A stretch of DNA of 63,994 nt, counting the filler, from Reclinomonas americana ATCC 50394 (taxonomy: Eukaryota), in the NCBI GenBank assembly GCA_048213135.1. It is 13 parts of 13 records of this genome, joined end to end, with 100 filler letters (N's around TTAATTAATTAA, not from the genome) between each part and the next. Parts side by side here need not be neighbours in the genome. Positions count along the whole stretch, not along the records: positions 1 to 8,870 come from AFZH01017063.1; 12 more parts are not named here. The stretch is one strand, 5' to 3'. The translations under genes were made by a program, and so were the position numbers. Shown here piece after piece: positions 2,553-60,936 of the stretch (position 1 is the first letter of the stretch; each line of letters begins with the position of its first letter). Below the pieces are notes generated by a model. That model saw only the letters and a list, made by a program, of their open reading frames with translations. It searched no databases and was not told the DNA's origin.

Positions 2553-3117
2553 CTTGCACACTCACAAACACACACACAAACACACAAGACTGCTTGACAA
2601 CAAACACAAAGAGAGAGAGAGAGAGACATGTCAGTCATGGACATCACGCGCACACAAACAAACGAAAATATGCAACTTCTTTTGGGTATCTGCTGCTCGT
2701 GCTGCGCGTGAGTTGCTCGTGCACAGAGAGTTGGTGCACTGAGAGTGAACGAGAGGGCAAGAGAGAAAGTGCGCGGGAATGGGGACAATCACGCGAGGGA
2801 CGCGAGGACACAGCGGAAGCTTTGCGTTCGTTGAGGTGTTGGCACTGGCGTCGCGGAGGGGAGACAGAGAAACGTGCGGCAAAGAGAGTCAGACTGTGTG
2901 CGACGCTGGAACTCGATTCTCGTTTTTACGGCAGAAGAAAACGACAAACTTCACGCACCAAGTGTACAGCAGCGGCTTCAACGCAGCAGCTCAACAGCAT
3001 GACACACCTCGTCTGCCTCTGCAATCGCTGTTTGCAAAGTGCGCAGTGAGAGGTGAAAATATGACGAGTGGGGGGACGCGTCCTTGCACGGGACACGAAC
3101 ACTTTTCTGTGTTGAGA

Positions 3118-3413
3118 ATGGCCTTTGTGCCTGATCCCGATGCGCCGGTCATAGCACTGCCGGTGCTTCCGGTTGCTCCGCAGAGACCGTCTGCTGCTGG
3201 AGCAAGTGGAAAGGCGGTTTTGTCGCTGGATAATGTGTTGGAGGAGGATCGGCGGGAGGCGGACAAGTTTGTGTGTGCAGTGTGTCAGGTGAGTGAGTGT
3301 GAGGGAAGGGAGTGAGTGAGTGAGTGAGTGAGTGAGGGGGAAGGGGCTAGACTGTGGGTTTCATTGAACGCACGCGCGCACACACAGTCGTGCACAGAGT
3401 GACTGAGCGAGCG

Positions 3414-3451
<38 letters not shown>

Positions 3452-6400
3452 AGAGAAGAGCAGAGAGCAGAGAGCAGAGTGTGAGTGAGTGAGTGACTGA
3501 TTGCACTGTCTGTGTTGATGTTTTGGATACGGTTGAACTTGGTCATCAAGACAGCTGTTGCTTGTTTGTTTGTGAATGAATTGTTGTTGTTGTGACCAAG
3601 AGCGTGTCAATCGATGTTGAACTTGAGTTGACATGTTACCCCCAGGATCTGTGTGGCTTGGAGTTCTGTTTGTGTGCGGCTGGCGAGCACACTCTGTGTC
3701 GGTGAGGCAGCGTGTGAGCAGTGATCTTGTGACTTTTGTGATTACATTATTGTTCCGCAGTGAGCATGTTGATCAGCGAGAGCGTGGACTGTGCGGATGC
3801 TGCTCGACGACTGCGGCGTCGGCGCATGAGGCGCCTCCGTTTGTGCGGCGTGCGTTCCGTAACATTCGAGTTGCGTCGCCACAATGCTCGTGTCTTCCTT
3901 GTTGACCACTAATCGTTGCAAAACAGGTCCGCTGTCCGGCTTGCGGTGCTGGCCCGCAAGTTTCGTCCCTCCGTGTCGCTGTTAGATGGCAAGCACACTT
4001 GATTCACTGAGCAAGTGGCATAGGCCATTGGCGAGTTTCATGACTCGCACGACTGTCAGACGCAGTGTCCGCAATGCCACGCGCTGTTTCCGGTCAGCGC
4101 TCTTGTGGAACACGCGTGGAGTTCGTGCGCGGTGCCATGCTTGCGTGCCGATCAAGGATGCCGTGCGCGGCTGCCGCCCTGCGAGATGAGCGCGCATCTC
4201 GAGTTTGTGTGCTTGTTTGCATGTCCGCGACAGTGTGGTGCGGAGTGTGGCTGGTCGCAGCTCCGGCAGCATCTGGGTTAGTGGTGCTGTTGTTTAGTTG
4301 TGCGATGTGAGTGGTTGGGTGACACGTGCGGGTGTGTATTGTTTTCAGATACGCAATGCCGACTGCGGCCGGTGCGCTGTGGCGCCTTTGACCTGGGGTG
4401 TCCGTGGCGCGGCACGGCCGAGAGTCATGCCGATCATGCGCAAGTGTGTCCTCTCGTGACCACGGCTCCCATGTTTCGCCAGGTGTGGCATTCGCGCAAG
4501 CACACCGCACACACTCAGGAGGGTGTAGGAGATGGTGCGAGCTCACGCTGTTGTTGGTCACAGTTGGCGGCGCGACTGGTGCAACTCACCGAGCAAGTCG
4601 CCGTCGAGCGTGCAGTTCGAGAGGAGGTCAGTGTGTTGTTCGCTGGACTACTCTGTTGTGCGAGGTTAACAGTATGCGCGTGTCGTTGTCAGCAAGTGGC
4701 GCAACTCACGGAGCAAGTCGCCGTCGAGCGTGCAACACGTGCGGAGGTCAGTGTGTTTCGCTTGACAGCTCTGTTGTGCACACGAGAATCCAAGTGTATG
4801 TGTGTGCATTACATGTATACAGATATCAGGGCACGTGGTGCACCTGTCACAGCGATTGGTGGAGGAGCGCAACATGCGAGAGCAGGTTAGCGGTGTCGTA
4901 GCGACGCCAGCGATGTCATACCAGCTGTTCACGTATTCGATGTGCAGCTGGTGCACTTTTTGGAGCACCGACTGGGTGAGGAACGTGATGCTCGTGAAGC
5001 GGTAAGTGTGCGTGCGCGGCATCATATGTGTGAGTCAAATGGCGTTGCTGAATCGTTGCGTTTTGTTCCAGCTGGAGCGGCGGTGGACTGCAGATCGCGA
5101 AGCATTCGCTGCAGTTTCGTTGTTTACAGGCTGCATTGTCGCTCTCGATGGTCACTGATGCCTCTCTTGCAGCAACTGCAAGCACTGCACGAGCAATATC
5201 AGCGACAAGAAGCTCGCCTGAGTGATACCCACGAAGCGGTAAGTGTGGATGTGCAGCAACAAGTGCGCCACACGGGCTTGCTGAGCTTTTTTATCTTTAT
5301 GATCTAGCTTGAGCGGCGCGTTGCATCAGTTGCGTTATTGGCTGGCTTACTTCGACAATGATACCAAGGTAACTCATGCGCTTGAGTGTATTGCATCAAT
5401 CGCAGCCGCGAGGCGAACATGTTCAGGTGCAACAACAGTTGCGCTCTATTTCCCGACGTCTTGGTTCTTCTCGATGCTGCTGATTCGTATTACAGGAAGC
5501 TTAATGTCAAAATTCGCGATGCCACGGCCACGGACACTGGTTGGTTCAAGAATTCTCGTTATTCGACACAGCTGCGACTGATCTCTGCGTACTGTGTGTT
5601 GTACAGTTTCAACATCGATTCAAGCCACTGTGCTGGAGCTCAAGACTGGTAGCGAGCGTTATCAACTTGTGATTTTACTCCAATGATCTTATTTGTGTTT
5701 TCCGGAACACGCACACGCGCAGCAATCAAGCAACTTGTTCCACGATATGCTGACGTCGCACACGACGAGATGCGACTGGTGTTTCGTGGCCGTGAGTTGG
5801 CACCTGATGCTGCTGCACTCTTGTCGCTGAATGTCGACAACGATGCAATCATTATGATTGCAAAGCGTGCACGGTAAGCAATGTGCGCCGATTGAAGATC
5901 TGAAGACGTGAAAGGAATGTCTCGTCGTTCTTACTGTTCGTCCCCCCTTGCAGTGCACAGAAGAGAATCGTGGTCAGAGTTCGCGGCGCGCGTTCCGTTG
6001 CGGGTGACGGTTTGTTCATATTATCACAGGCATTAGCATGCTATGATCGAGAATGATGACTTGTAAACCCTGTGCAGTGACCATTGCGCATGATGCAACC
6101 GTGCTGCAGCTTAAGGACGGTAGTTCGCGCATAGTGTCGTACTCTTAGTCAACGGCATTGTGCGCTGTTGCCCTTAACTCGAGATCTAAACTCGCGCAGA
6201 ATGTGCTAGGCAGTTTCCGCCATGCGATCAGCTTTCGCATGACAGCATGCGACTGGTTTTTCGTGGCCGAGAATTGGCACCGGATACTGCCACACTGTCG
6301 TCACTGGGAGTTGAGGACGATGCAAACATTTTGTTTGTTGAGCGGTGAGCTTCTTCTGCTGCCCTGCTACGCGCTAGGTGTTTCATTGCGCATACTCCTT

Positions 6401-7661
6401 TCCGTTCTGCAGTCTGCAAAGGAATACAATTACCGTCAGAATCCGTGAGGGGCCAAATACTAACTCTGGTACATTATTGAGGCCGGACTGCTTTATCATT
6501 TATTGAGATTCTTGAGTTAGATAGATCTTCATTAACTTGTGTCGACGCAGTGACTATTCCGAAAGACGCAACCTTACTGGAGCTGAAGTATGGTATTCCT
6601 GGACTTGGTCAAGTCTCAACATCATTCCGCTGCTTTCAGCTGACTCGTGAGCTGGAACTCGTGCAGAAATCAACCGGCAAATTCCACGACATGCTCAGTT
6701 GCCAACTGACGATATGCGATTGGTGTTTCGTGGCCGCGAACTGGCACCAGATACTGCTACGCTCCGCTCGCTTGGAGTGGAGGAGGATGCAAACATTATG
6801 TTTGTTAAGCGGTGAGCTTCTTCTGCCGCCTTCGTATCACGTGCTTTGTGCAAACTTCTTTCCTTTCGGCAGTGCCCAAAGCAAAAATATTACCGTCAAC
6901 GTCCGCGACATGGCAGCTGTTCACTCTGGTGTGTTGACAGGGCACAGGTTTGTATGTGTTTGCTGCTTCAGTTGGGTTCATTATCGTGTGTCGCCTCGGC
7001 GCAGTGAGTATTCCCAAAGACGGAACTGTAATGGATCTCAAGCATGGTATTTTGCACTCGGATATGAATGGCTATCCGCGCCGACAACTCACGAGCTGCA
7101 ACTCGTTCAGAAATCGCTCGACAAATTCCACGACTTGCTCAGTTGCCACCCGGAGAGATGCGATTGGTGGTTCGTGGCCGCGAACTGGCACCTGATACTG
7201 CTGCACTCTCCTCGCTGGGAGTTGAGGAGGGGGCAAACATTATGTATGTTCAACGGTGAGCACCCTCAATAGACTTTTTCCTGCTCTATGTAGATCTGTA
7301 TCTGAGTACCATTTCCGGCAGCGTCCGCGGCTCCGACCGCCGCTTCAAGACCGATCTACGTCGCCTCGACAAGAGCGTCGCCGCTCGTCTCCGCCACGTT
7401 CACGCCTACACCTACCGCTGGAGGCCCGACACACCCATCCCCGGCACCGCGCCGGGTGTCACCGACTTTGGCGTCATGGCGCAAGACCTGGAAGCCGCGT
7501 TTCCGGAAATCGAGAGGCTGGTTGTCAGTTGCACCGACCGCGACTTCAAGATGGTGGCGTACGACTCGCTGGGACCGCTGCTGATCGACGCCATCAACGA
7601 GCACTCGGAGATGCTGGAGGCGCTGGTGGCGCGGTGCGACGAGTTGGAGAGTGTGGAGTGA
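3118..7661 (+). CDS. Multi-exon RING / TRAF-type Zn-finger / coiled-coil / 4x ubiquitin-like / Peptidase S74 (ICA) protein
   Basis: About 25 short GT-AG exons splice in frame. RING-like: KFVCAVCQDLCGLEFCLCAAGEHTLCREH...LCGCC. Zn fingers: VRCPAC..HDC, CPQC..EHAWSSC, RCGAFDLGCPWRGTAESHADHAQVC. Heptad-rich mini-exons follow, then four UBL repeats with ATxLELK and MRLVFRGRELAPD. The last exon (7322-7661) has SDRRFK, YTYRW, FGVMAQDL and VAYDSLGPLLIDAINE. The start could also be the in-frame ATG at 3061. Confidence 0.85.
5496..7255 (+). repeat. Four tandem three-exon cassettes, each encoding a ubiquitin-like (beta-grasp) domain
   Basis: Copies at about 5496-5873, 5954-6344, 6412-6811 and 6873-7255 share atgcga(c/t)tggt..ttcgtggccg.ga..tggcacc.gat.ctgc and have identical intron positions and phases. 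Confidence 0.88.
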
Positions 7662-7946
7662 GCAGTCGGCACAGTTTGGTGGTGGAGGTCTTGGAAATGC
7701 ATGCTGTGTAAAGTTGTTGTTTTACGCACCTCTCTTCACGTGTGCTATAAGCGGAGAGATCAGTGTGTGGTGACACCGCTGAAACCTACAGACGGATTTG
7801 GTTCAGCATATATTTGAGGGGAGGGCGCACACCGTATCGGTATATTCAGAGATGTAAGGCTGCTCGCTGGGTGATGAGCTGAAGGTGTGTCGGATGTTGT
7901 TGGAGTTGGTATTGATGTTGTCGGCGATCGATGTGTTGTGGCACGA

Positions 7947-8812
7947 CTAGAAGCCAGTGAAGCGTTTGAACACGGTTTCGCCCTTGACGCATACGGTGCC
8001 GCTGATGCAGGACTTGTAGGCATCCAAGAGTCCATCGCACTGAGGCGCCCAGTGCTGCCCGTCGCATCCGGACATGAAGGGGGAACACTCTTGAATCCGA
8101 ATGGTGACGTTGACCACACACTGGTTGTACAACTGTTCAAGCTGTTGGCGCTGATGGTTCTCCATATAATATGCGAGCGCGAGAGCGGCGAGGAAGCCAG
8201 TCACGCCAGCATGACCAAATGAAGCCGCTGTCTTGAGTGCACCAACCGACACCTGCATATGCATACAGCAGCAGTAAACATCCCAGTGGAGTGGACATGT
8301 ATAAGCAAGTCACTCACTGCGGCACTGCCGTAGGTAGAAAGGGAATCACTCCCACCGTCCTGTGACAATCACATGTTCAGCAAACATCTGCAGATCTAGA
8401 TCTGTGAATACAGGAATCGAACAAAATGACATTTGCATGTCGACACGAAGCGCACATCCAAGAAACATGCGCAATGAGAAAAGTTCTCGCACCCGCCTTT
8501 CAGTCATGCGATTCTCTTCTTGGTGCCACAAGAACTCATGAACAAGCGCGGATGCACATCCTGCGCATGCACTGTGCGCGCGCATCGCGCGCAGCGGTGC
8601 ACGTTTTCGTACCTTCAACAGCAGTTCGGACCCTTTGACCTGCGCGTTGACATCGCCAGCAGAGATTGCCATCAGCAACAACGAAGCAATGCATATAGTT
8701 GACAGATCCAACTGAGCACAAAGCGAACATGTGCGTGCGTGTGCACAGCGAGATCAGAACTAGTAATACAACACAGCAGCTTGACAAGGCGACAAAAACT
8801 CACATATCGCAT
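7947..8812 (-). CDS. Hypothetical small protein with signal-peptide-like N-terminus and Cys-rich C-terminus
   Basis: Tentative splice gives MRY|LDLSTICIASLLLMAISAGDVNAQVKGSELLLK|...|VSVGALKTAASFGHAGVTGFLAALALAYYMENHQRQQLEQLYNQCVVN...CSPFMSGCDGQHWAPQCDGLLDAYKSCISGTVCVKGETVFKRFTGF*. Internal exon boundaries are uncertain. Confidence 0.4.
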
Positions 8813-8870: not shown

Positions 8871-8970
8871 NNNNNNNNNNNNNNNNNNNNNNNNNNNNNN
8901 NNNNNNNNNNNNNNTTAATTAATTAANNNNNNNNNNNNNNNNNNNNNNNNNNNNNNNNNNNNNNNNNNNN
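8871..8970. other. Assembly gap with six-frame stop linker (first of 12)
   Basis: 44 N + TTAATTAATTAA + 44 N. The same structure starts at 11465, 14929, 17456, 35320, 38937, 41421, 47270, 56672, 57963, 60417 and 62865. Confidence 0.99.
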
Positions 8971-9092
<122 letters not shown>

Positions 9093-9142
9093 TCCCTCTC
9101 CCTCTCCCGTCCCCTCTATACTAACCGCTTTTCCCTCCACAG

Positions 9143-11389
9143 GCATCATGGAGCTCGGCCCGAACGCCCTTCGCGACTCGTACCTGCAAGACTTTGCCTA
9201 CCTGATCACGCTCGACCCGGAGGAGCACGTGACCAACTTCAAGAACAACGACCCGCCGCTCACCGATTTCCACTCGGAGATTTTCAAGTTCAAGGAGGCC
9301 GCCCGCCGCATCCAGAAGCGCTCCGACGACATTGTGCTCTTCCAGTGCATTGCCGTCGACTGCACCGACATGAAGATTCTGCTGCAGGTTCGACTTGTGC
9401 TTCTCCCTGCAATAGTCAAAGTTTTCTCTCACACGCGATTCCTCCCTCCACAGAACAAGGCCGAGCACGTGGCCTCGCTGCTGCTGCAGGTCGTCGAGGA
9501 GCAGACGCACGTGCTGATGAACGAGGTGTGCAAGGCATACGCGTTCATCTTCAAGAAGATGGAGGGCATTCCGAAGAACGCCGAGGCCATGTTTGAGCTG
9601 CGGCGTTACCTGGACGAGCGCGCACAGGAGCTGCAGCGCCTGCAGGAGAATATCCAGATTGGAAGGGTTTGTCGATTCATGCTTTCTTGCTTTTTGATCG
9701 GCCTGTGTGCACTCACGTCACTTTCTCTTTCCCTGCGTGTAGGACAAGGTGGATCTGCTGGAGCATTTCCGACAGCTGCTGAATCAGCCCGACACCAAGA
9801 CGTTCTGGACGATGGTGTGGTGGCCGAGCAAGCTGTCGGAGCTGCAGGACCGCACCGAGATGCGTCTTGCCAACGACCATCGCAAGTTCCTCGAGCAGCT
9901 GAAGCGCGACCAGGCCGAGCTCACCGAGGCCTTTGACCACTTTGACGAGCGCGTGCAGGCGCTGAAGAACCTCGGCGACCTCGACCAGGTGTCGGAGAAC
10001 GCCAACTTGATTCGCACCATGATGGCCGAGTTGGAGGAGTTCAACAAGAGCGCGCAGCTGTACAAGCAGCGCGAGACTCTGTTCGGTCTCAAGCAGACGC
10101 AGTACACCAAGCTCAACGAACTCAAGGGCAACTTTGATCCGTTGCGTCGCCACACCGCACCACACCACACTTTGTAGTGTGGGCTCACCCTTTCACCGCA
10201 GATTCAAGAACCTGTGGCTGATCTCCGACGAGTTCATTCGCCAGTACCCTGAGTGGATGGAGGGCTCGCTGAAGGGTCTGGACGGCGAGAAGATCAAGGA
10301 CGACGTCACTGAGTGGAAGAAGGTGATGGGTCAGCTTGTGCACAAGCTGGACGGTCTGCCCGGCCCGAAGGCAGTGGCCGACAAGGTGTACAACGACGTT
10401 GCGTCACGACGACCACTTCGAAAGGAGAATGAGAGAGAACAGAGAGTGGAGAGAGAATGGGACTCTCATCCCTTTTCTTTTCGCTCTTTCACTGTTCCGA
10501 TGATTGCTCACTCCTATGCGTGTGCAGATCGAGACTTTCCGCCCGTACGTGCCGATTATTATCGCTCTCACCAACAAGGGCCTCAAGAGCCGCCATTGGG
10601 ATGAGATCTACTCTGTGTTGTCCATCACCGAGGCCGAGGACAAGGAGGAGCTGACGTTGACGGGTCTGCTCAAGTTCGACTTGGAGAAGAACCTGCAGCA
10701 GGTGTGTTTGCATGGTCGCCTCGTGCTGTGTGTTTCCATTGACTGACCCTTTCCCCGTGTCTGTCTGCTCAGGTGCAAGACATTAGCGAGCGTGCCTCGA
10801 AGGAGTGGAACCTGGAGAAGGCACTGGACAAGATGATGTCCGAGTGGCGCTCCATTAACTTTGAACTGGGTCCGCTCAAGGACACGCACATTTTGCGCGA
10901 GGTCGATCTCGTGCAGCAGGTGCTCGACGACCACATTGTCAAGACGCAGGTTTGTGTGACACATTATCTCTCTCCCACCACATCCATCGTTTTCTCACTT
11001 CTGCGTTCAACCCATCCAGGGCATGCGTGGCTCGCCGTTTGTCAAGCCGTTCGAGGACCGTGTGATCACATGGGACCAGAAGCTGCTCAGCGTGCAAGAC
11101 ATTTTGGACGAGTGGCTGCGCTGCCAGGTATTGTCAAAGAAAGAGAGAGACAGAGAAATAGGAAGAGAGAGTTTTCGTGTGTGTGTGTGTGTGTTCTTTG
11201 CCTGCTTGTTGATTTCCTTCCCCTCTTTTTCTTTGTAGGTGACGTACATGTATCTGGAGCCGATTTTCTCGTCGGACGACATTATGAAGCAGCTGCCGGT
11301 GGAGGGCAAGGCCTTCCAGGAGGTGGATGTGTTCTGGCGCAACACCATGGCTCTGGCCATCAAGAACCCTCTTGTGTTGTCCATTTGCG
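9143..11389 (+). CDS. DNAH: Axonemal dynein heavy chain, tail/linker region (partial, multi-exon)
   Basis: Spliced exons give ALTNKGLKSRHWDEI, ISERASKEWNLEKALDKMMSEW, LDDHIVKTQGMRGSPFVKPFE, WLRCQVTYMYLEPIFSSDDIMKQLPVEGKAFQEVD, which are hallmark DHC N2/linker motifs. Confidence 0.93.
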
Positions 11390-11564
11390 GTGAGTTTTTC
11401 CGCCTCCCCCGCTCTGGCTCACAATCCCCCCACTCACCTCCGCTTTCCCTCAATAACAGCCACANNNNNNNNNNNNNNNNNNNNNNNNNNNNNNNNNNNN
11501 NNNNNNNNTTAATTAATTAANNNNNNNNNNNNNNNNNNNNNNNNNNNNNNNNNNNNNNNNNNNN

Positions 11565-14500
11565 CTACGCCGGTCGTTCTGAGCTGCCCGATAACTTGAA
11601 GGTGAGTGGCGGAGAAGGGAAAGGAGGAGAAGAGGAGATCAAGGGGAAGACGATTTTTCACGAGCTTCTGTCTCTCCGTGTCTCGTGTCCTTTCTCTTCA
11701 TTTCGCGTCTTCTCTTTGTTGCCCTCTCCTTATCTCTGCTTTTCTGTTCTCTCTCAGCTTGTATTCTTCTTCTTTCTCTATGCCCTCGTTGTGTCATTTC
11801 CTTTGTTCTCTCCCTCCCCTCTCTCTCTCTATCCCTTTCCCCCTCCCTCCCTTCTCCTTCACCTCCTTCTCACCCTTCCCCCTTCACCTACACAGGCCCT
11901 CTTCCGCCCGGTGGCTATGATGGTCCCCGACTACGCGCTGATTGCCGAAATCTCGCTCTTCTCGTACGGCTTCCTGCTGGGCCGCGACTTGGCGCGCAAG
12001 ATTGTGGCCACCTACAAGCTGTGCTCCGAGCAGCTGTCGTCGCAAGATCACTACGATTACGGCATGCGTGCCGTCAAATCGGTGCTGACGGCTGCCGGCA
12101 ACCTGAAGATGAAGTACCCGAACGAGCGCGAGGACGTGCTCATGCTCCGCGCCATCACCGACGTCAACCTGCCGAAATTCCTCACGCAGGATATCGAGCT
12201 GTTCCAGGGCATCATTTCCGATCTGTTCCCTGGCGTTGATCTGCCGGCACCCGACCGCGAGGAGCTGGTGGAGGCCATGTGCGTGGCGTGCCGCGAGTTC
12301 AACTTGCAGCCGACGCAGCCGTTCTTGGACAAGACGCTGCAGGTGTACGAGATGATTCTCGTGCGCCACGGTCTCATGCTTGTCGGCTTCCCCAACTCGG
12401 GCAAGACGTGCTCGTACAAGGTGCTGGCGCACGCCATCAATCAGCTGGCGGAGCGTGGCAAGGAGAATCAGGTCTCGTTTGTCGTCGTCAACCCCAAGGC
12501 CATCACCATGGGTCAGTTGTACGGCGAGTCGGACCTGGTGTCGCAGGAGTGGACCGACGGTATCATGTCCAAGAAGTTCCGTCGCTTCGCCGACGACCAC
12601 TCGCAGAACCGCAAGTGGATTGTGTTTGACGGGCCCGTCGATGCCTTGTGGATTGAGAGCATGAACACTGTGCTGGTGAGTCTCCTCCAGCCTGCATTGT
12701 TTTTCACGCTTGGTGCTGACTTGATTCTTCTCCTTCTTCTTTTCACAGGACGACAACCGCAAGCTGTGCCTGGTGTCTGGTGAAATTATCACCATGTCGC
12801 CCAACATGAACTTGGTGTTCGAGGTGGCCGATTTGGCCGTGGCTTCGCCGGCCACCGTGTCGCGTTGTGGTATGATTTACATGGAGCCGGGCGCGCTGGG
12901 CTGGGAGCCGCTGCGTGACTCGTGGCTGGCCACGCTGCCCGACTACTTGGATCAGTCGCACCGCGATTTGCTGCGGACCATGTTCAATTGGCTGCTGCCG
13001 AGCGCACTCGACTTTGTGCGCAAGAACACGCGTGAGCCGTTGCCGACGGGTCCGATCCAGATGGTGCGCAGTCTGATTGATCTGCTCTCGTCCATGATGG
13101 ACGAGTTCCTCTTGGAGGAGAAGAGGGTGCGTATGCTTGTCACCGTGGTGGGATCCACAAGCGCGAGTACTGATGGTTTCTTTCTTTTATTGCGTGCGCA
13201 GTACAAGGACCTGGGTCAGCGTGTGGGCACAGAGTGGCTCGAGGCGCTTTTCGTCTTCTCAATGATCTGGACTGTGGGTGGCACCACCGACATTGAGGGA
13301 CGTGTCAAGTTCAACCAGTTCACGCGTCGTTTCCTCGACGGCAAGGAGCTTGGTGCGTGCTTTCCCCCTCTCCAACCGGCCACTCTGCCCTCCTTTATTT
13401 GTTGCTCATGATGTGCCACACAGACGGATCGACGCACGCCGTGCAACCGCCCATGCGCCTCAACATGCCGATTCCGGACAAGGAGACTGTGTACGACTAC
13501 TGCTTTGTCAAGGAGGACAACTGCTGGATGCGCTGGGTCGACCTGATTGTCGACAAGCCGTTCTCGCGCGACACTCGTTTCCACGACATTATCGTGCCGA
13601 CGGCCGACACCAAGCGCTACTCATTCATGCTCGAGACGCTGGTGACACATCGCAAGCCGGTGCTCTTTGTCGGTCCGACCGGCACAGGCAAGACGGTGTA
13701 CGTCAAGGAGACACTGGAGAAGGTGCTGGATCAGACCAAGTACATGCCAGTGATGATCACCTTCTCGGCCAAGACGTCGGCCAATCAGACGCAGGATCTG
13801 ATCGACGCCAAGGTCATGCGTCGCCGCAAGGGCTACTTTGGTCCGCCAATCGGCTTCAACATGGCCATTTTTGTCGACGATGTCAACTTGCCGGCGCTGG
13901 AGAGAGTTTCGTGAAGGGGGTGGGAGGAGGAGGAGGAGAAGGAGGAGGGCAAAGAGAAGGAGGGGAAAGAGAAGGAGGGGAAGGAGAAGGCGAGAAGGAT
14001 GAAGATAAGAAAGAGAGGCGGAGGAGGAAGGAAAGAAGAGCTAGAAGCAGCAGCACAAGTGTTTTGACACTTCAGTTACTCAAGATAAAGAAGAAAGAGA
14101 AGCAGAGGCAGAAGCAAGAAGAGAAATATGAGGAGGAAGAGAAGGAGAGAAAAGTGTTGTGATACAGCATTCACTCGAGACTACGAAGAAAGAGAAGCAG
14201 GAGCAGATCCAAGATGAGGAGGAGGAAGAGAGGGACGAGACGAAGAAAGGAGAGGAGAGGAGGACAGAAGGAAAAGCAGACTCAAAAACTGGAGTTGTTG
14301 TAGGAAGGGGAGAGCAAAGTTGTTCTGACCTAGACTTGCTCGAGACAAAAATAGAAGTAGCAGCAGAAACAGGAGAAGAAGAGAAGGAAGGCAAAGAAAA
14401 ACGAAGAAGAGTACTATGAGACACTCGCTCAGGTTAAAGAAGAATGAGAAGCAGAGCGAGAAAAGGCGCTTTGACGATGTACTCACTCAATTTTAATCTC

Positions 14501-14857
14501 TTTTCCTCTCCCTTTCCCCCTCCCCCCCTCCCTCTTTCCCCCCTCCGCAGTACGGCGCACAACCGCCAGTCGAGCTGCTGCGCCAGTACATGGACCACGG
14601 TGGCTGGTACAACCGCGACCGCGCCGACAAGGAGGCCACGTTCCGCAACTTGGTCGACTTGCAGCTGGTGTGCGCCATGGGCCCGCCTGGTGGCGGCAAG
14701 AACCCCATCACCGCGCGCTTCTCGCGCCACTTCAATGTCTTCTCGCTGACCGAGTTCGACGACGAAACATTGACGCGCATCTTTACGGTGATCACCACGT
14801 GGTTCTCCAAGCCGTTCGGCATGACGCTGGCTTCTGTCACTGGCCCGTGTGTCGCCG
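11565..14857 (+). CDS. DNAH: Axonemal dynein heavy chain, end of AAA1 through AAA2-AAA3 (partial); resembles the single-headed inner-arm class
   Basis: [66 protein letters not shown]-loops GFPNSGKT and [58 protein letters not shown]. Confidence 0.96.
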
Positions 14858-15028
14858 GTGAGTGCCACACTTGCATCATATCATGCATTCTTACGTCACA
14901 CTCACTCGCTCTCTCTCAAATCTCGCCTNNNNNNNNNNNNNNNNNNNNNNNNNNNNNNNNNNNNNNNNNNNNTTAATTAATTAANNNNNNNNNNNNNNNN
15001 NNNNNNNNNNNNNNNNNNNNNNNNNNNN

Positions 15029-17454
15029 CCGCCGGAAATGGTGAAGAAGGTGCTGGCTGCTGTGTGCATTCTGAAGGGTGTGCAACCCGTGAAGGCACTG
15101 GACGACAAGGGCAAGCGTGTGGAGGACTACTGGCCGAACGCCGTGAAGATGATGGGAGAAATGACCTTCCTCAAGTCGCTCTTCGACTTTGACAAGGACA
15201 ACATCCCCGCGGCCATCATCCAGAAGCTGCAGCCGTACCTGGAGGATCCCAAGTTTGTGCCCGAGGAAATGATCAAGGTGTCGTTCGCCGCCACCGGTCT
15301 GTGCTCGTGGGTGCGCGCCATGGACACGTACAACCGTGTAGCCAAGGTCGTGCGACCGAAGCAGGAGGCTGCTGCGGAAGGTGCGGTGGGAGGGGAAAGG
15401 GAAGAGAAGAGGGAGAGGGAAGGGAATATAGAGGGAGAGGGAGAGAGAGGTGAGAACGGAGGGGGAAAGAAGAGAACGAGCGGAAAGGCCAAATGTGCTG
15501 TTAGGGCATTGGAGTAAGGGAGCATTGCTCAAGTGATTCAGTGACTGCGTGAGTAAGAGAGACAGAGAAAGAATATGGAGAGTGAGAGGAAGTGGGAAGG
15601 ATCGAGAATGAGCGACGAGTGAAGAAGAGAGTGTGTAAGTGTGTGAGCGAGTGAGAGGGAGATACGCGTTCGATGTGTTGGTTCGGTGAGTGCGTGGGTG
15701 AGTTGTGATCGAGAGGAGAATGAGTGAGCAAGAGAGCATGAGCTCATGGTTGTTGTCCGTAAACTTCCCCTACGTGATCACTCACATCACTTGCTTCCCT
15801 CTCCCGCAGCCACTGCCGAGTTCGAATCTGCCATGGCGATTGTGAATGAGAAGAAGGCCATGGTGCAGGCGGTGCGTGCGCGCATTGCCGAGCTGGAGGC
15901 CGCCTTCCAGGCCTCCAAGGTCAAGGAGGAGAATTTGACGCGCGAGAAGGAGAATGTGCTGAACAAGCTGATCCGCGCCAACAAGCTGATTGACGGCCTC
16001 GGCTCCGAGCGTGATCGCTGGACAGAGGCCGCCAACGAGCGTGCGGCAGCGTACGTGGCGCTGACGGGCGACGTGCTCATCTCTGCCGGTCTGATCTCGT
16101 ACCTCGGTGCCTTCACGGCCGACTATCGCCGCGACGCTATTGTGGAGTGGGTGGCCAAGTGCAAGTTCTACAAGATTCCGTGCACCGACAACTTTGCGCT
16201 GGCACGCGTGCTGGGCGACCCCGTCAAGATTCGCGACTGGAACATTGCGAAGCTGCCGGCCGACGATTTCTCGATCGAGAACGGCATTGTGGTCGAGTAC
16301 GGCCAGCGATGGCCGCTCATGATTGACCCGCAAGGTCAGGCCAATCAGTGGGTGCGCAACATGGAGGAGAAGAACGGCCTGAAGGTGATCAAGCTCTCCG
16401 ACAACGACTTTGTGGCCAAGCTGGAGCAGGCCATTCAGTACGGCGACCCAGTCCTGCTCGAGAATGTCGGCGAGGAACTGGACCCCGTGCTGGAGCCGTT
16501 GCTGGTCAAGCAGATTTTCCGCGAGGCCGGCGGCTGGGCCATCCGCATGGGTGACAAGGTGCTGACGTACTCGGAGGAATTCCGCTTCTACATCACCACC
16601 AAGCTGCGCAATCCGCACTACCTGCCGGAGCTGTCGACCAAGGTGACGCTGCTCAACTTTATGATTACGCAAGCCGGTCTGCAAGATCAGATGCTTGGCC
16701 GTGTCGTCATTGAGGAGATGCCGGAGAAGGAGGAGGAGAAGAATGAGCTGGTGCTGCAGAGTGCGGAGAACAATCGCTTGCTCAAGCGCATTGAGGATCG
16801 CATTCTGGAGCTCCTGTCCACCGAGGGCGACTTGCTGGAGAATCAGGAGGTCGTGGATGCGCTCGACGAGTCCAAGCGCAAGTCGAACGAAATCGAGGAG
16901 AAGCAGGAGCAGGCGGCGAGGGTGAGTGGCGCGAAGGGGGGAGGGGAGAGGGAGAGAATAGGGAAAGATGACTGGTTTTCTGTTGCATGTCTGTGTTGTA
17001 TGCTGGCTATTAGTTTGATTATTCGGCGGTGTGTACTCTTTTGCGTGCGTTCATTCTCATTAGTTGAGATCTATTCGCCTGCTAGAGTGTGTCTTTTGTG
17101 CCCGTGTTTCATTCAGTCAGCCTACGTTCTACTCTGATGCGGGCCTACTTCCATCTTCAGTCTGAAGATCGGTAGTTTCTGGTGTGTTTTGCGTGTTGCT
17201 CGTGTGCGTTTCCAACTCGGTGACCAGAGAGTGTCTTTTGCGCTCGTGTTCCATTCAAGACCGTACTTTCTTTGCATGCTCTAGTCAGTGGCCCGAATGC
17301 GTCTGTTTCGTTCTATTTTGGCACCTCTCGTGTATCTCGTGTGTGTGCTGTTTGTTCGTGTTACTTCTTTCAGCGACAACTAATCATTATTCCTTCCGCT
17401 CTCTTTTCGCAGACGGAGGCAGATATCGATCGCGCTCGTCAGCAGTACGTGCCT
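15029..17454 (+). CDS. DNAH: Axonemal dynein heavy chain, stalk/MTBD and AAA5 (partial)
   Basis: VSFAATGLCSWVRAM, KLIDGLGSERDRW, RWPLMIDPQGQANQWVRNME, FRFYITTKLRNPHYLPE. Collinear with the two preceding contigs. Confidence 0.95.
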
Positions 17455-41420: not shown

Positions 41421-41797
41421 NNNNNNNNNNNNNNNNNNNNNNNNNNNNNNNNNNNNNNNNNNNNTTAATTAATTAANNNNNNNNNNNNNNNNNNNNNNNN
41501 NNNNNNNNNNNNNNNNNNNNAAATGAGACTCTTTCTTCTCTCTTTCACTTTCTCATTCTATCTTTCTTTTTATCTCTCTCTCTCTGTCATTCACTCTTTT
41601 CCTTAATCTCTCTATCTTCTATCATTTCCTTTATCTCTCTCTCTCTGTCATTCTCAATTTTCCTGTATCTCTCTCTATCATTCTCCCTTTTTCTTTACCT
41701 CTCTGTCTTCCCTTTCCCTCTCTCTTTCCTTTGTCTCTCTGTCTCTCTCTTCCTCTCTCTCTCTTCCCCTTCCCTCTCTCTCCTCCCTTCACGCAAC

Positions 41798-44700
41798 GAT
41801 TGCCCAGCGGTCCCGGCATGCGCCAACGCTGCCCGAGCCAGTACGCCTTGACCGGATCCTCAAACCCGGACTGCAGCACCGAGTTGCGCGCAATCTCGCA
41901 CATGTCGGCCGAGCTGAGGTTGTAGATTTGCGAGGCCACACTGTACTCCTCCACCAGCGCCTGGTTCGTAAAGTGGAACATGAGGGGGTCTGTGACACGA
42001 GGTGAAGGGATGAGAAGGGAGAGAGAAAGAGAGGGAGAAGAGGGAAGGAGAGAGAGACCGTCGGTGGACAGCGACACGTTCAGTCCGCGGGCAAAGAGCT
42101 GCGGGAACGGATTTTCGCGGATGCTGAGGAAGAGAGCGTTGTTGCTCAGAGGCGACACCGCAATGCCGATTTGCGTCAGGTAGAAGCTACGAGAGAAGTC
42201 AGTGTGACGAAGATCGGGACAAGAAATGGCCTGCAGTGCGCAACAGATACTGGAGCACTGGCGACGCGTGCAGGCGAATGCCGTGGTTGATGCCGTCGGC
42301 CAGGAAAAAGGCGGAGATGAGGTGCTCCGTGTCGCCCGCCTCGCCGCAGTGCGGGCGGAAGGCGAAGGTGTCTGCGGGGGAGGGGGAAGGGGGAAGGGAG
42401 AAAAAGGGAAGGGGAAGGGAAGGGACAGGAAAGGATGAGGAGACTTTCAGCACTTCTACATTAAATAAGGTCTTCTTCGGTCTCTGTTCCATTTTTTCTT
42501 GTCTCTGTCCTCCCTCTCTCTGGTCCTGCAATTCTTACATTCTTGAGCTCTTCCACACGAAATAAGGTCTTCTTCGGTCTCTATTCCATTTTGCTCTATT
42601 GTCTCTGTCCCTCCCCCTCTCTGGTCCTGTAATTCTTACATTCTTGAGCACTTCTACTTGAGATAAAGTCTTCTTCGGTCTCTACTCTCTGGTCTTGTAA
42701 TTCTTACATTCTTTCATCATTCGTTTTCTCTGTCTGTCATCGTGTTATTCATTCTCTCTTTCCCTCATTTGCAGTCGGATTCATGTTTCTTGCCCCTTCT
42801 CTCTCTGATTGTGTCGGTCTCTCTGCATGTTTCTCTCATATTTGCTCCTTTATTCTCATTCCTTTCCCTTGCGCCTTTTCATTGATCTTCTCAGTCTCAC
42901 TTCTCTCTCATCTGCCGTTTTCTCTCTCGCATAACCGCGTCGTTCAGCCTAATCCACTCACCCTTCCTGAAAGCATCTCTCTCCCTCGTTGTCTTTTTCT
43001 CTTCACTTTCTCATTCCCATCTGTTTTCTCTCTGGCTGTTGCTCTCTTTCACTCCCTCTCGCTTGCTGTCGTCGCTTCCTCTCGTCGTGTCGCATCCCAC
43101 ACCTCAAGCGCTCTCTCTCTCTTCTCTTAATCTCCGTCTCTCAATTAATAGTTCTCTCCTTCTCAGTTTTCTTCATCGTGTCGTTCTACAGCTCCTTTAT
43201 CGATTCGCACTACTTCTCAGCCATTCCCTCACGCACTCTCTCTGAACATGGCATTCTCACTTTCTCCCTCGTTTTTGCACTCTATCTTCCCCTCTTCATT
43301 CACCATGTCTTTCATATGCTGTCGTAATCCCACCCTCGATCTCTTTCCTCTCTCACTCATTGCTTTCTTTTTTCCGCCTCTCTCTCATCTTATTGTTCTC
43401 ACGTCACTATGTCTCTCATTTTGTCGTTTTCTTTCTCACTCCGATCTATCGTTTCTCAGTCTCTGTTTATCGCTCTCTCTGGCTGTCGCTTTCGTTCACA
43501 CCCTCTCACTGTCGTTCTCCCTCTTTCTCTCCCTCTCATACGTCCTATCTTTCTCTGTGCTATTCTCTCCGTTCCTCTAATCTTGTCGTTCTCTCACTCT
43601 CGATCTCTTCCATTCTCTCTCTCATCGCACTGTTCTCAATCCGTTCCTTTCATCTTGCCATTCTCCCTCTCTTTCTCCCTCTCAATCTCTTTTTCTCTCT
43701 TTCTCCGCCTCTCTCCTCTCCCTCTCCCTCCCCCGCTCACTGTTGCTTTGTTTCTCTCTTCTTGGAGCTCTCTTTCTCAGTGTCCATCTCTCCATCTCCC
43801 ACTCCAAGCTACTGTTGTTCTCTCCGTCTCTCTGTTCTCTCTCGCACACACATTTAAAAGTTTTCTCTTTCTCTCTCACACACAGACATCTGATTGTTCA
43901 CTCTTTCGCTTTCTCTCATATTGTCGTTCTGCCTCCCTCACTCTCTGTGAGTCTGGCTGCAGCTCTCTCTCTCTCTCTCTTCCCTTTCTCTCCGCCTCTC
44001 TCCCTCTCCCTCCCTCCCTCTCCCTCCCTCCCTCTCACCCCCTCCCTCTCCCTCTCTCTCTCCTCCAATCACATACACAACAGCTGTGCTGAGCACGCAA
44101 CTCATCCCACGCTCCTTGCGGAAGCGGTTCAACACAAATAAGTTGGAGTACCAGCTGCACCGAAAACAATGTCAACTCGACACCTCTTATCAACCACAAG
44201 CACTCCACACGCAACTAGTACTGGTAGTACGTGTACGGCGGATTGCTGTGCGAAAAAAAGGTGAGCTCTTTTCTAATCCCTCTCCACCTTCCCCACCACT
44301 CACCCATTGTAATTCCACTGCTGCGGCGGCCACAGCGTGTGATGGAAGCGCCGCTCGTGCTTCGACTCGTCGTCCACCGAGTCAATCGCCACCACCTGCC
44401 GCAGGAACATGTGCAGATCGGGGTTGCTCGATGGGTCGGCGGTGACCTCGAACAGCGGCACGAAAAAGTCTGCACTCCATTCTCAGCAGACAGTATCGAC
44501 ATTGCGTTCTCCCAGTCCTCCACACCCCGCAACTGTCAATCATCTCCTGGAACGACTTGACCTTGCCGGTGTCAAACAGCACCGTGTAGATGCGCGGCGC
44601 CTGGATCATCCATCGCACATTGGGCGACGACAGGCGGTGATGCAGCACCCAGCGCGCAACCGATGTCCATTCGTCGCGCTGCAAGGAGATCGAGTGAGTG

Positions 44701-45981
44701 CTTAAAGGTTGCTCTCTCTCTCTCTCCCTGTCTTTCTCTCTTCTCTTCTCTCACTCTCTCTCTCTCTCTCTCGCTCGCTCTCTCTCTCTTCTCTTCTCTC
44801 TCCCTCCCTCTGTCTCTCTCTCTCTCTTCGCTCTCTCTCTCTTCGCTCTCTCTCTCCCTCCCCCCCTCCCTCTCCCTCGCCTCCACCACCGCAACACGCA
44901 CCGATCCACCATAGACCGAGATGCGCGGCTCGGAGCCCACATACTTTTCGCTCTCGAAATCGTGAAACACGGAGCGTGCAATCTCCGCAAAGTACCGGCC
45001 GTCCATGTGGTTCTCGGTCTTGATGAAAATCGTGCGCAGCAGCGACTGGCCCATGGGGTTGTACTTGAGGTTGAAGTTGTCGAAGCGCTGGAAGGTGGAC
45101 TCGTCGGCCTGTCGCACCAAGGGTCAACGAAAGAAAAAGAGAGCGAGGGAGAAAGCAACATAGGGGTTGGCGCAACGTGCACGCCGAGGGCGTCGACGTT
45201 GAGGGTCTCCGGGTTCATATTGAGCGACTGGAAAACTTGTGCGAGGGTCATCTCGCGGCCGCTGCGGTCCTTGTGGACAATGTCCTGAAAGGGGGGTGAG
45301 AGGGGAAGGGGGTGAGGGGGGGAAGGGGGAGGGGGAAGGGGGGTAAAGGGGAAAGGGGGGAAGAGGGAAGGGAAATCATGGGGGAAGGGATGGAGGGGAG
45401 GACAATAGGAGGGGGAAGAGGGAAGCGAGGATAGCTATCTTCTTCCTCCACCTCCGCCTACCAGCAAGGTGAGACAGAGCGAGAAATATATCTCATTTCT
45501 TCTCAAACACGAGAAATGAGTTACAGAGGAGTGCGACTCAGGAGGAAGCAATGATGACCTGAGAAATAAAGAAGCGCCCGTCTGCAAATCCCTTATCTCC
45601 TTTCGCGCACCAACTGTCACACGACTTTATGCCCCGCCCTTTCTCTCAGTCTCTTTTCTCACAGCTCTCCGTCTTTCCGTCCCTGTTGACTTTCTGTTTC
45701 CTCGTTTTCTCTCTCACACACAGTCTTTTTTCTTCTCTCTCTCGCTCTTTCACTCTCACCATGTCTCTATGCCTCGACCTTCCTTTCAGTTTCAGTCTGT
45801 CTCTCTATCCCTTTCCTCTTTTTTCTCACTTTCTCTTCCTCCTCACTTTCTCTCCCTCAATCTTTCTCTCTATTCTCACTTGTTTGCTTCTCTCATGCAT
45901 TCTTTCATACTTTCTCTCTTCTTTTTTCACTCTCATCATGTCTTCACGCCTCGCCATCCTTGTCAATCTCTCTCTCTCCCT

Positions 45982-46031
<50 letters not shown>

Positions 46032-47236
46032 ACTCTCACCATGTCTTCATGCCTCGCCATCCTTGTCAATCTCTCTCTCCCCCTTTTCTCTTCTCTCTCT
46101 CTCTCTCATTCACTCTCACCATGCCTTCATGCCTCGCAATCCTTGTCAATCTCTCTCTCACCCTTGTCTTTCTTTCTCCTCTCTCTCTCTCTCACACTCA
46201 CTCTCACCATGTCTTCATGCCTCGCCATCCTTGTCAGTCTCTCTCTTCCCTCTCCTTGTCTCTTCTCCTCTCTCGCTACACTCTTCTCCACCACTGCATA
46301 TTTCCACTCTCTCCCTCTTCGCAACATCAGCATGGTGTCGCGCCTTGTCGCGAATGAAATCCAGCAGGCGCTGCTGGCTGCAGATGGAAGCCAGGTGGAT
46401 GTGCGTGTCGACTTTGAAGACGTTGTAAAAGTCGCGACCAGACACTTTCTGCGGATGGAGAAGGGGGGGAAGGAGGTGAGTCGAGGGAGAAAATGGGAGT
46501 GCTCTTTGTTGCGCGCTTCTCTTATTCGTCTCTATGCAGGCTCTCCCCTCCAAACACACGCACACACCTGCTGCTCCTTCAGCTCCGCGCCCCAGTTCAG
46601 CGACTTGTGAATGGTGAACTTGCGCTCCAGCAACGTGAGACGCCGGTGGCAGTAGGTGAGCAGCGGGCCGTCGGTGCAGAGGGCGGAGAGGCGCTTGTGG
46701 ATGGCGTAGTACTCGGGCATGCCCATAAAGGCGATGCGCGGCTGATTGGCGGCGGCCGCTGCGCAGGGCAAGGGTGTGGGTCGAAAAAGGAGGCGAGAAT
46801 GGAGAAGGAGATGTGTGGCGTACCTTCTTCAGAGTCGTACACTTGCATGACGCCGTCTTTCATGCGGAACACCGAGGTGGAGCGCGGGATGGAGGCGGCG
46901 TCGCAGGCGTAAGGGTCAAAGGGAAGGTCGGGGGAGTCCTCAGCAGCGGAGTCGCCGGTTCCGTGGTGGGCGAGGAGCTGCGCGAGTGGGGATGAGGGAA
47001 AGGGAGAGGGAAAGGGACAGGGTTAGGGAAAGGGGGAGAGTGGGAAAGGGAGAGGGAAAGGGTGAGGGAGAGGGAGACGGAAAGGGAGAGGGAAGGGGAG
47101 AGGGAAAAGGGAGAGGGAAAGGGAGAGGGAAAGGGAGAGGGAAGGGGAGAGGGAAAAGGGACAGGGAAAGGGAGAGGGAACTGCTGTACCGTACATCCGC
47201 CTTGGCCGTACAGCAGTCCTCTCTCTCTCTCTCTCC

Positions 47237-58089: not shown

Positions 58090-59884
58090 AGTGAGTGGAG
58101 AAGGCTGACCGTGGGAGCGCGAGGTCATCGCGTGCGCGGGAAAAAGGAAAAGCCGGCTTGTGGGACACCACTTGTCTCCGGGGCCACTTGGTGATCCACG
58201 TGTTTTGTTGGCAAAGGAAGTGGTGGATGGATTGTCTGTGTGTATACACTGGAAAGGTGCTTTGGTTGGCGTGGTGGTGAGAGAGCGCGAAGTTCATCGG
58301 TCGCGACGTTCGAAGTCTGGCCCAAAACACGATGACCAATCTCTTGCCGACAATGACTTGGCACACCAACTGTATGCAAAACACACAATTACTCTTCATC
58401 TTCCCTTTCAGGATCAAAGGCGTGTGGCGCATGTGGTGCTCGCTCGCCTTGCCCACTTTCTTCCTGTTTCCTGCACTCTTTCTCTTTCCCTCTGTCTCTG
58501 TCACTCACGCTCTGCCGGAATGCGACTCAGCTCTCACTGCAACTGACATTAGGAGTACGATCACTTCGCCTCCAAATTACATCACATACAGCGTCGGCGC
58601 ACCGGGCCCCTCTGCTGCTTTCTATCATGCACTCTTTCTCTTTCCCTCTTTCATTCTCTTTCTCACTGCAACTGAACCTTCACCCTCGACATTAGAAGTA
58701 CGATCACTTCGCCTCCGGATTACATCACATACAGCGTCGGCGCACCGGGCACCTCGGTCACCAACTGCAACTCGTCGCGCACCTCATCGTCCGAACCATC
58801 GTCTTCGTCGCTATCGTGCCCGCGTTGCAGGCCGCGTTCCTCGGGCGTCGGGTTGACGACCATGTGCAGGCGCGGCGACTTGAGTTTCCCGTCCACCACC
58901 ATCGCCAGAAACACGCTGTCGCGCAACGACGGCTGCCCGTGCGCAGACGTTGTTCCCGCCGCAGTCAAGTGCTGCTGGTGATGGTGGTGATGGTCGGGTC
59001 GACTCGGTGACGACGATGAGCGAGAGCGCGCTCCTGGGCTGACGCTGCGCGCTGGCGACACACTCGAGCGCTGCGACTGCGTGCGGCCGCGACCGCGCGG
59101 ACTCCTCTCCTCTTCCACCAACTTCTCCTCCACACTCGAGTCAAACTGCGGCTGCCGCAACGCTTCCTCGTCGCCACCCGCCACCGTCAGCACCGCCGTC
59201 GGTGGACATGGCAACTGCTCGCCCAGCGTCTTGAACGGCACCAGCATCACCTCGCCTTCGATCCAGTACACGCGACGACCGGCAATGCGCGGTGACGATG
59301 ATGACGACGACGACGAAGACGGTGATTTGGGGGACGACGGTGATGCCTTTGCTGCTGCCACACGCGAGTGAGCGCACGTATAATCAAAGGAGAGAGTGCC
59401 ATAGACGCACCATGCGTCGGCGACCTGCGCGTAGGCGATCGCTTTCCATTCGAAGGACTCGTGGTCGTGGTGGTCGTGCTGGTCGAGTAATACCTCTGCA
59501 GCACCACCGCCGGCATATCCGTGCGCTCATACACCTCAAAGTGCGCCGTGCCCGTCACTGGCGACACAAAGCGCGCCACCAGTTGCGTCGACCAATCGAC
59601 ACGCGCCAGGTCGCGTCGCGTGCGAATCATGAAGGGAGGGTGGTGAACGACGGCCACGGAGGAAGAGTCGCCATCGTGACGGCGATGCAGAATGGTGCGA
59701 GAGACGCAGCGGGTGGCCGAAGAGGAAGAGGAGGAGGATGAAGTGGGGGCGGGAGGTGGGGGGATGTGCTGTGGGGGGAGAAGGGAATGAGTGGACAAGA
59801 GAGGAGTGGTGATAGATGCGTGTGTCACCTGTGCTCGAGCGTGCAGGTGGGCGAGAAGCAGTGGATCGGAGGTTGCCACGTGAC
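58090..59884 (-). CDS. Hypothetical low-complexity protein (internal exons; may be the same gene as 56772-57661)
   Basis: Long GC-rich open frames with globular-looking patches (RVDWSTQLVARFVSPVTGTAHFEVYERTD, RVYWIEGEVMLVPF, DSVFLAMVVDGKLKSPRLHMVV) separated by Ser/His/Pro tracts. No family recognised. Confidence 0.5.
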
Positions 59885-60304
59885 CTGCGCATGGAGAGCG
59901 GGGGTGAGAGAGGGAAGGAGAGGAAGGAGACACGGAAAGAAAGGGAGAGGAAAGGAGAGAGGAAGAGGAAAGGAGAAAGAAGGAAGTGAGGAAAGATGAG
60001 AGACGAGAGAGAGAGAGAGAGAAGGAAGTGAGGAAAGATGAGAGAAGAGAGAGATAGAGAGTAGAGAAGAGAGAGAGAGTGAGAATGAGAGAAAGAAGTA
60101 AGGAGAAAGAAGGAAGTGAGGAACGATGAGAGACGAGAGAGTGAGAGTGAGTGAGAGAGAGAGAGAGAGGCAAGAGAGAGAATGAAGAAAAGTAGCAAAG
60201 AAGAAGAAAGGAGAATGAAGGAAGTGAGGAAAGTTGAGAGACGAGAGAGCAAGAGAGTGAGAATGAAAGGAGGGAGAGGAGGAAAAAGCAACAAGATGAC
60301 GAGC

Positions 60305-60416
<112 letters not shown>

Positions 60417-60936
60417 NNNNNNNNNNNNNNNNNNNNNNNNNNNNNNNNNNNNNNNNNNNNTTAATTAATTAANNNNNNNNNNNNNNNNNNNNNNNNNNNN
60501 NNNNNNNNNNNNNNNNAGAGAGAGAGAGAGGAAGAGAACAGTTTATCTGCAATTATTTATATTCTGTACACGCTTCTCAACTCTCACAACCGCGTTATAG
60601 ACTGAATAAGTTTCTGGCGTGTGAAGATTGCAGTACGAGGATGGCATCCCTCAACCTTCCATGCATAGCGATTACACACGTGTATCGATACAAAGACCCA
60701 CATCAACTGCACGAGAAGGTAGACCGCTGACAGTAGTCGCTAACCGATCACCCCGTTTCATGAAAGAGACGGAGGAGTTGAGGACAGAGAATCAACACAC
60801 TCGCACTCACTCTCTTTTCCACAATCTCCAATGCCACCACACTCTCTCACTTGACGTCTTCTTTCCACTCCTCCGTCTCTTTCTTGTCGCCCTACGTGAC
60901 AAGCTGCGTCTTCCGACAACTCTTTTCCCTGCCCCT

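Follow-up and report, generated by a model that had tools for sequence, protein, structure and literature searches.

Ubiquitin-like (UBL) proteins normally depend on separate proteases for their maturation and on an E1-E2-E3 cascade for their attachment to targets. Polyubiquitin and UBL precursors are matured by deubiquitinases or ULPs, the tail of ubiquitin carries the motif R-L-R-G-G, and in Parkin-type ligases a UBL serves as an ordinary interaction module. The sole published bypass of this route that was found is the intein-like BUBL system of Tetrahymena, in which, as section 2.4 of the source describes it, the intein-like BIL2 lies between ubl4 and ubl5 and ubl4 is conjugated to lysines independently of ATP (PMC8616854, which cites Dassa 2004 and Chiarini 2021). 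A different self-cleaving module, the domain known as Peptidase_S74 or intramolecular chaperone auto-processing (ICA), trimerises in MYRF and cuts just before a Ser, according to the cited passages of PMC3742443 and PMC8326128; the former describes ICA as both a trimerisation chaperone and a folding sensor. Here we describe a plus-strand locus (positions 3118-7661) in a 63,994-nucleotide stretch of DNA (the window) from Reclinomonas americana ATCC 50394, assembly GCA_048213135.1. At its 3' end a UBL is joined directly to an S74/ICA domain that retains its catalytic dyad and is confidently modelled as a trimer, and further UBLs, a coiled coil, zinc fingers and a RING-like motif lie upstream. 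Tentatively, and with somewhat less than even confidence, we read the locus as one gene of about 27 exons encoding a RING-like motif, four SIAH/TRAF-type zinc fingers, a coiled coil, four UBLs and a terminal S74/ICA domain, whose predicted self-cleavage would leave the fourth UBL (UBL4) ending in R-V-R-G. The finding rests on a single locus.

The open reading frame (ORF) at 7260-7661 holds a Peptidase_S74 domain (PF13884 in Pfam, E 7.5e-13; 49 bits, with a cut-off of 22). It is encoded in the last exon (7322..7661), which runs from the UBL4 tail, V-R-G, directly into the domain and ends with a stop codon at 7659-7661. The motifs SDRRFK, Y-x-Y-x-W and GVMAQD are all there, and every one of 30 ESM Atlas feature matches of this exon belongs to the PF13884 set. 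A sequence search of the PDB with the exon gave a sole match at E ≤0.01, the phage long-tail-fibre chain 6f45, and a profile built from the exon and 31 relatives reached six ICA-bearing structures, among them MyRF 7dc3 at E 4.9e-18. An AlphaFold (AF2) model of the exon, computed with the alignment behind this profile, had a mean predicted local distance difference test score (pLDDT) of 93 and a predicted template-modelling score (pTM) of 0.75. When this model was submitted to Foldseek, the MyRF ICA domain 7dc3 took ranks 1-3 (probability 1.00, template-modelling (TM) score 0.75), followed by the endosialidase chaperone 3gw6, 3gud and T5 4uw8. The exon's Ser5 (codon 7332-7334) and Lys10 (codon 7347-7349) occupy columns with a conservation of at least 90% in a set of 32 sequences, and the Ser-x4-Lys dyad is intact. 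These residues are in register with S587 and K592 of MyRF, with A at the dyad position in the crystal sequence, and Arg8, Tyr32 and Trp34 occupy MyRF positions R590, Y615 and Y617. By profile, fold and catalytic residues, the S74 exon is confirmed as an ICA-type domain.

Modelled in three copies, the S74 exon formed a trimer with a score of 0.90, compared to 0.02 for the best of three controls, in runs with a contact agreement of at least 97% and a partner pLDDT of at least 87. Of 30 proteins whose solved structures are pairs of one chain, 21 attain the mark applied to this score; of 23 solved as single chains, none does. Residues 1-16, the catalytic Ser included, contact neighbouring copies in the model. 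This is a likeness and not proof of assembly, because ICA trimers have already been solved. The initial annotation of the locus had called for the trimer to be modelled; the model obtained covers the S74 exon.

The connection between UBL4 and the S74 domain is direct. The S74 frame is without any Met ahead of its Ser, and the exon therefore needs an upstream exon. It carries a CAG acceptor after a 66-base intron and is in frame with UBL4 in phase 2 only; the last UBL4 exon has a phase-2 end and a GTGAGC donor, the same as in units 2 and 3. HMMER aligned UBL4 to ubiquitin residues 29-67, and ungapped extension past residue 67 places the last residue of the UBL4 exon on R72 and the following V, R, G and S on 73-76. 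By this extension the catalytic Ser sits at the position of ubiquitin G76, immediately after a Gly encoded at 7329-7331. According to the cited passages of PMC8326128, the cut in MyRF falls between P586 and S587, N-terminal to the Ser, and cleavage is abolished by S587A and by K592A, the residues equal to S911 and K916 of endoNF. Since the Ser aligns with G76 and MyRF is cut before its Ser, UBL4 would end in R-V-R-G after cleavage.

Relatives of the S74 exon were sought by an exhaustive HMMER search, which gave 2282 matches at E ≤0.001; the best 150 of these were examined and are the relatives referred to below. Among 153 S74 motif sites in 138 of them, the Ser is preceded by G in 21 and by R-G in none. 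Judged from these sites, the R-V-R-G tail before the Ser is peculiar to the Reclinomonas americana protein and not a general S74 habit. In the mechanism that we propose, the S74 domains of three chains would assemble and each would cleave directly ahead of the Ser that it carries, in the manner of MyRF and the phage tailspikes, releasing approximately 109 C-terminal residues. What remains would be a ligase-like trimer with R-V-R-G at the end of the last UBL, a tail of the ubiquitin style. In this way the protein may be able to trim its ubiquitin-like tail with no other protease involved.

The UBL array consists of four three-exon units, the exons measuring 44-56, 42 and 145-151 bases and the intron phases being 1, 1 and 2 in every unit. 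In each unit the third exon matches positions 23-71 of the PF00240 profile, with E values from 1.5e-6 to 2.1e-4. Unit 1 (5496-5539, 5607-5648 and 5723-5873) matched at E 9.4e-5 and, in the ORF scan, at 2.1e-5; unit 2 (5954-6009, 6078-6119 and 6200-6344) at E 1.1e-4; unit 3 (6413-6468, 6551-6592 and 6667-6811) at E 1.5e-6, with 28.3 bits; and unit 4 (6873-6928, 7005-7046 and 7111-7255) at E 2.1e-4. Unit 3 is the one of the four that exceeds the gathering score of 25.4 bits, and the other three fall under it because each third-exon piece is approximately two-thirds of a domain. The PDB matches of the UBL4 piece were polyubiquitin and ubiquitin-like proteins. In all six pairs of units the exons are more alike (57-79% identical) than the introns (26-49%), and the ratio of nonsynonymous to synonymous substitution rates (dN/dS) is 0.25-0.82, so the units look like coding repeats under constraint. 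Tandem Repeats Finder detected the microsatellites of intron 1 and not the diverged UBL units.

The upstream half of the locus has a TRAF- or SIAH-like layout. Exon 1 (3118..3288, within the ORF 2749-3315) begins with the ATG at 3118, and the first C-x2-C of a RING-like Cys/His pattern stands at its end, before a GTGAGT donor; an alternative in-frame ATG lies upstream at 3061. The remainder of the RING-like pattern is carried by exons 2-4 (3646-3701, 3761-3869 and 3927-3959), with C-P-x-C at its end. It is split over four exons with atypical spacing and is recognised as a pattern only, and the donor of exon 3 is uncertain in the model. Exons 5-6 (4024-4276 and 4349-4482) encode four consecutive fingers of the form C-x(2-6)-C-x11-H-x(3-5)-C, the fourth of which spans an intron. 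A regular-expression search of the window translated unspliced in six frames (127,984 residues) found this pattern only at this locus, as four overlapping matches at three sites. Pfam placed zf-TRAF_2 and Sina_ZnF on the fingers at E 0.016-0.49, with 11-16 bits against cut-offs of 27-32, and all nine PDB matches of the zinc-finger exons were SIAH1 (best E 0.047). An AF2 model of exon 5 made without an alignment reached a pLDDT of 42.8 and was not used.

Exons 7-12 (4564..5238), which are short, repeated and all in phase 0, encode a 114-residue segment without Pro. By a home-made measure its heptad contrast is 0.461 as compared to 0.261 in shuffles, a value reached by 0 of 500 shuffled sequences. 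Exons 10-11 (4948-5113) and 12-13 (5173-5328), introns included, resemble a local duplication, in that an exon join between E-A and L-E-R-R and similar intron starts recur; because of this resemblance, the coiled coil seems to have grown through exon-pair duplication. Pfam scans of seven exon pieces and of 25 plus-strand ORFs at 2749-7708, which make up most but not all of the plus-strand frames, gave no match to a MATH (TRAF-C) domain, a SIAH substrate-binding domain or a Hint/intein domain, and none to a family other than those described above. No transmembrane segment was found in the model protein; the top 19-residue hydropathy is 1.7 and lies inside the Cys-rich RING stretch. These results bear out what the initial annotation had said of the parts: a terminal S74 domain with the three motifs given above, four UBLs, a coiled coil and a missing MATH domain. 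The TRAF-like zinc fingers it had named are upheld as a pattern unique in the window, with weak profile support.

The gene model was built from splice-site reading alone. It comprises 27 exons encoding 818 residues without a stop or a frame break, and all 26 introns are GT-AG. In 25 of them the length is 57-82 bases; intron 1, at 357 bases, contains (GTGA)n and (GA)n microsatellites. Intron 6 (81 bases) is stop-free and in frame and could be retained. The stretch at 5239-5495, between the last sure coiled-coil exon and the first UBL exon, is crossed in the preferred model by two small exons, 5308-5328 and 5406-5437, whose acceptors are CAG or TAG; compared by eye, donor 5329 is placed similarly to the exon 11 donor at 5114. 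In total, 28 strict in-frame GT-AG paths join exon 12 to UBL1 across these 257 bases. However, shuffled versions of the interval yielded at least one open GT-AG path in 290 of 300 cases, so an open path here is no evidence of continuity. ORF continuity as proof of a single gene was dropped after this control. The claim of the initial annotation that the exons splice into one protein is thus upheld to the extent that an open GT-AG model exists, but the sequence leaves the middle junction unconstrained.

The junction allows a second reading, which we consider possible but rather unlikely: two neighbouring genes in one orientation, the first encoding a SIAH/TRAF-like RING, finger and coiled-coil protein without MATH that ends near 5361, and the second a poly-UBL-S74 protein that starts at an ATG at 5419-5421 (Met-Phe-Arg, then UBL1). 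Read-through of exon 13 does meet a stop at 5359-5361, and the ATG, if paired with the GT donor at 5427, connects to UBL1 in the correct phase; some of the open paths end at 5426. The next ORF lies tail to tail with the S74 exon only 286 bases from its stop, so gene spacing here is tight and close packing is possible. Set against these points, fewer than 60 bases would separate the stop from the next start, which leaves no room for separate untranslated regions. The acceptor needed at 5413 is GAG, whereas all other acceptors in the model are CAG or TAG, and intron size and style are common to the exons of both sides. The shared strand and the gap of only 257 bases likewise support one gene. 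The ligase-like front half, with its RING-like motif and zinc fingers, is probably joined to the UBL-S74 half. If there were two genes, the idea of a self-processing UBL would still apply, but that of an E3 ligase carrying its own modifier would not.

The S74 exon is nearer by sequence to phage and bacterial fibres than to MyRF. Its best identity to a relative is 46% and its best E value 3.6e-11; the ten best relatives are metagenomic, and only a Chryseobacterium tail-fibre protein carries the name of an organism. Sixteen of the relatives were scanned with Pfam, and no ubiquitin, RING or TRAF family was present in them. Neither the UBL array nor the N-terminal half had a match at E ≤0.01 in 162 retrieved proteins and 35 retrieved loci (277,668 bases), where S74 alone matched; scans of metagenome and viral contigs likewise gave S74 matches alone, at 27-40% identity. 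Word-indexed searches of longer proteins with the S74 exon, the alignment of the four third UBL exons and zinc-finger exon 5 gave no match at the thresholds used, which is weak evidence. No search, with single exons or exon alignments as queries, found an orthologue or a UBL-plus-S74 architecture.

This pattern of relatives would also fit a lineage-specific product of exon shuffling or gene transfer, unexpressed or decaying, in which an S74 exon of bacterial, phage or giant-virus origin came to lie behind a UBL array. The distance and metagenomic origin of the nearest S74 relatives, and the lack of an orthologue in the collections searched, speak for such an origin. However, the 27 exons are without a frame break, the exons of the UBL units are conserved over their introns in six of six pairs with the dN/dS values given above, the catalytic residues are intact, and the GC content of the locus matches its surroundings. 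A decaying product is accordingly a very improbable explanation.

Several observations beyond the junction weigh against a single self-processing ligase-like protein. The searches brought up no relative of the same architecture, so conservation gives it no backing. ICA domains normally sit behind a trimeric beta-helix and not a globular UBL, as the cited part of PMC8326128 describes, and the pass of the trimer model may come from solved ICA trimers in the memory of the modelling program. One column that holds Lys in at least 90% of 32 S74 sequences has Asn here (N93). The same source reports that K671 of MyRF, a Lys that its authors expected to matter and that may or may not fall in this column, proved dispensable (PMC8326128). 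Finally, there is no Gly tail at the three internal UBL junctions. A conjugatable C-terminal Gly-Gly is found nowhere in the array; in the last unit the S74 Ser comes directly after R-V-R-G, so cleavage would expose no more than one Gly.

The internal junctions bear as well on a more conservative reading of the same single gene, in which S74 acts only as a chaperone for folding and trimerisation and is then discarded, the UBLs mediate interactions in the ordinary way and R-V-R-G has no role in conjugation. ICA domains act as such chaperones in phage fibres and in MyRF, according to the cited passages of PMC3742443, and a Gly stands before the Ser at 21 of the 153 S74 sites anyway. The full R-x-R-G register with ubiquitin, however, occurs at none of these 153 other sites, and four globular UBLs between a coiled coil and S74 would be an odd substrate for a fibre chaperone. 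We regard this explanation as unlikely. The self-processing proposed in the initial annotation is supported in part. The Ser at the position of ubiquitin G76 and the S74 trimer model favour it, but a cleaved tail may never be conjugated, and the two halves may be separate polypeptides.

A bolder extension of the self-processing reading, which we consider improbable, would make S74 a built-in UBL maturase. Trimerisation would trigger an N-to-O acyl shift at the Gly-Ser bond, and the resulting UBL-Gly ester would be hydrolysed to a conjugatable tail or passed directly to a lysine. The acyl shift is an inference of this analysis and is not taken from the literature. The direct route to lysine would be independent of ATP and E1 and single-turnover, like that of BIL2 in BUBL, but it would use an unrelated fold of phage origin that is physically linked to a RING/TRAF-type module for targeting. 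If the self-processing reading is true, a second, unrelated self-cleaving module would stand at the position of the ubiquitin tail, which would suggest that autoproteolysis has been wired repeatedly to UBL tails in evolution. The phage ICA domain would also have been put to new use in eukaryotes a second time, MYRF being the other case.

The window as a whole is eukaryotic nuclear DNA with a GC content of 0.49-0.58 along its length, interrupted by N gaps and rich in (GA)n and (GT)n tracts. Long microsatellites of (GTGA)n, (GA)n and (GT)n occur at 3289-3479 and, for example, at 8900-9600, 41500-44400 and 59250-60460, within introns and between genes; they give rise to long spurious ORFs rich in S/L and C/V. 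No second copy of any part of the locus was found elsewhere in the window. Downstream of the S74 exon, the neighbouring ORF is a Cys-rich frame of 120 codons on the minus strand (7950-8309) without a Pfam match. Dynein heavy chain exons lie at 9700-17140 on the plus strand (DHC_N2, Dynein_AAA_lid, AAA_7, MT stalk and AAA_9, with N gaps between them), so the host probably has flagella or cilia, or at minimum cytoplasmic dynein. At 17500-38600 on the minus strand is a very long series of repeated ORFs with matches to NHL-repeat, Teneurin-NHL and arylesterase-like proteins, which suggests a single giant NHL-repeat gene or several such genes in an array. AMP deaminase exons are present at 44575-46859 on the minus strand.

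Compared with known systems, the locus combines features of several. Among the papers listed for S74 or ICA domains in eukaryotes or together with ubiquitin, no title or abstract named a UBL-S74 or RING-S74 protein, in line with the initial annotation, which knew of no described protein of this architecture; the concept itself does have a precedent in Tetrahymena BUBL, as the cited section of PMC8616854 presents it. Like MYRF and Dictyostelium MrfA, the Reclinomonas protein would be a eukaryotic host protein bearing a phage-type S74/ICA domain with a Ser-x4-Lys dyad, and the MyRF ICA domain 7dc3 is the best structural match of its S74 model (TM 0.75). Unlike them, it has no NDT80-type DNA-binding domain or transmembrane segment, no beta-helical stalk is seen, and S74 stands at the extreme C-terminus behind a UBL. 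The chaperones of phage tailspikes and tail fibres (endoNF 3gw6, GA-1 3gud, T5 4uw8 and 6f45) are the closest group by sequence and share the terminal S74, which in them is shed after trimer assembly; the cargo here is a spliced eukaryotic protein with a RING-like motif, zinc fingers, a coiled coil and UBLs, and not a fibre.

In the order of RING-like motif, SIAH/TRAF-type zinc fingers and coiled coil, the front half resembles TRAF and SIAH RING E3 ligases. It differs from them in that no MATH/TRAF-C or SIAH substrate-binding domain was found, the RING-like spacing is atypical and the finger profile scores lie under the Pfam cut-offs. With polyubiquitin and UBL precursors the locus shares a head-to-tail UBL array and a last unit whose tail is in register with that of ubiquitin. 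In contrast to those precursors, the internal junctions are without Gly-Gly, a fused domain would sever the bond that follows the last Gly, and the product would end in one Gly instead of two. The closest published concept is BUBL, which, as far as the cited section describes it, likewise pairs a poly-UBL protein with a fused autoproteolytic module at the C-terminal end of a UBL. The module here is S74, trimer-dependent and with a Ser-Lys dyad, unrelated to the Hint/intein fold, and it occurs once, at the end of the array and not between UBLs. Conjugation of ubl4 is described for BIL2, whereas in Reclinomonas the tail may or may not be conjugated. A self-processing UBL precursor would thus belong to a known kind of system, of which BUBL is the example; the use of S74 as its module, and this protein as an ICA host, would be new.

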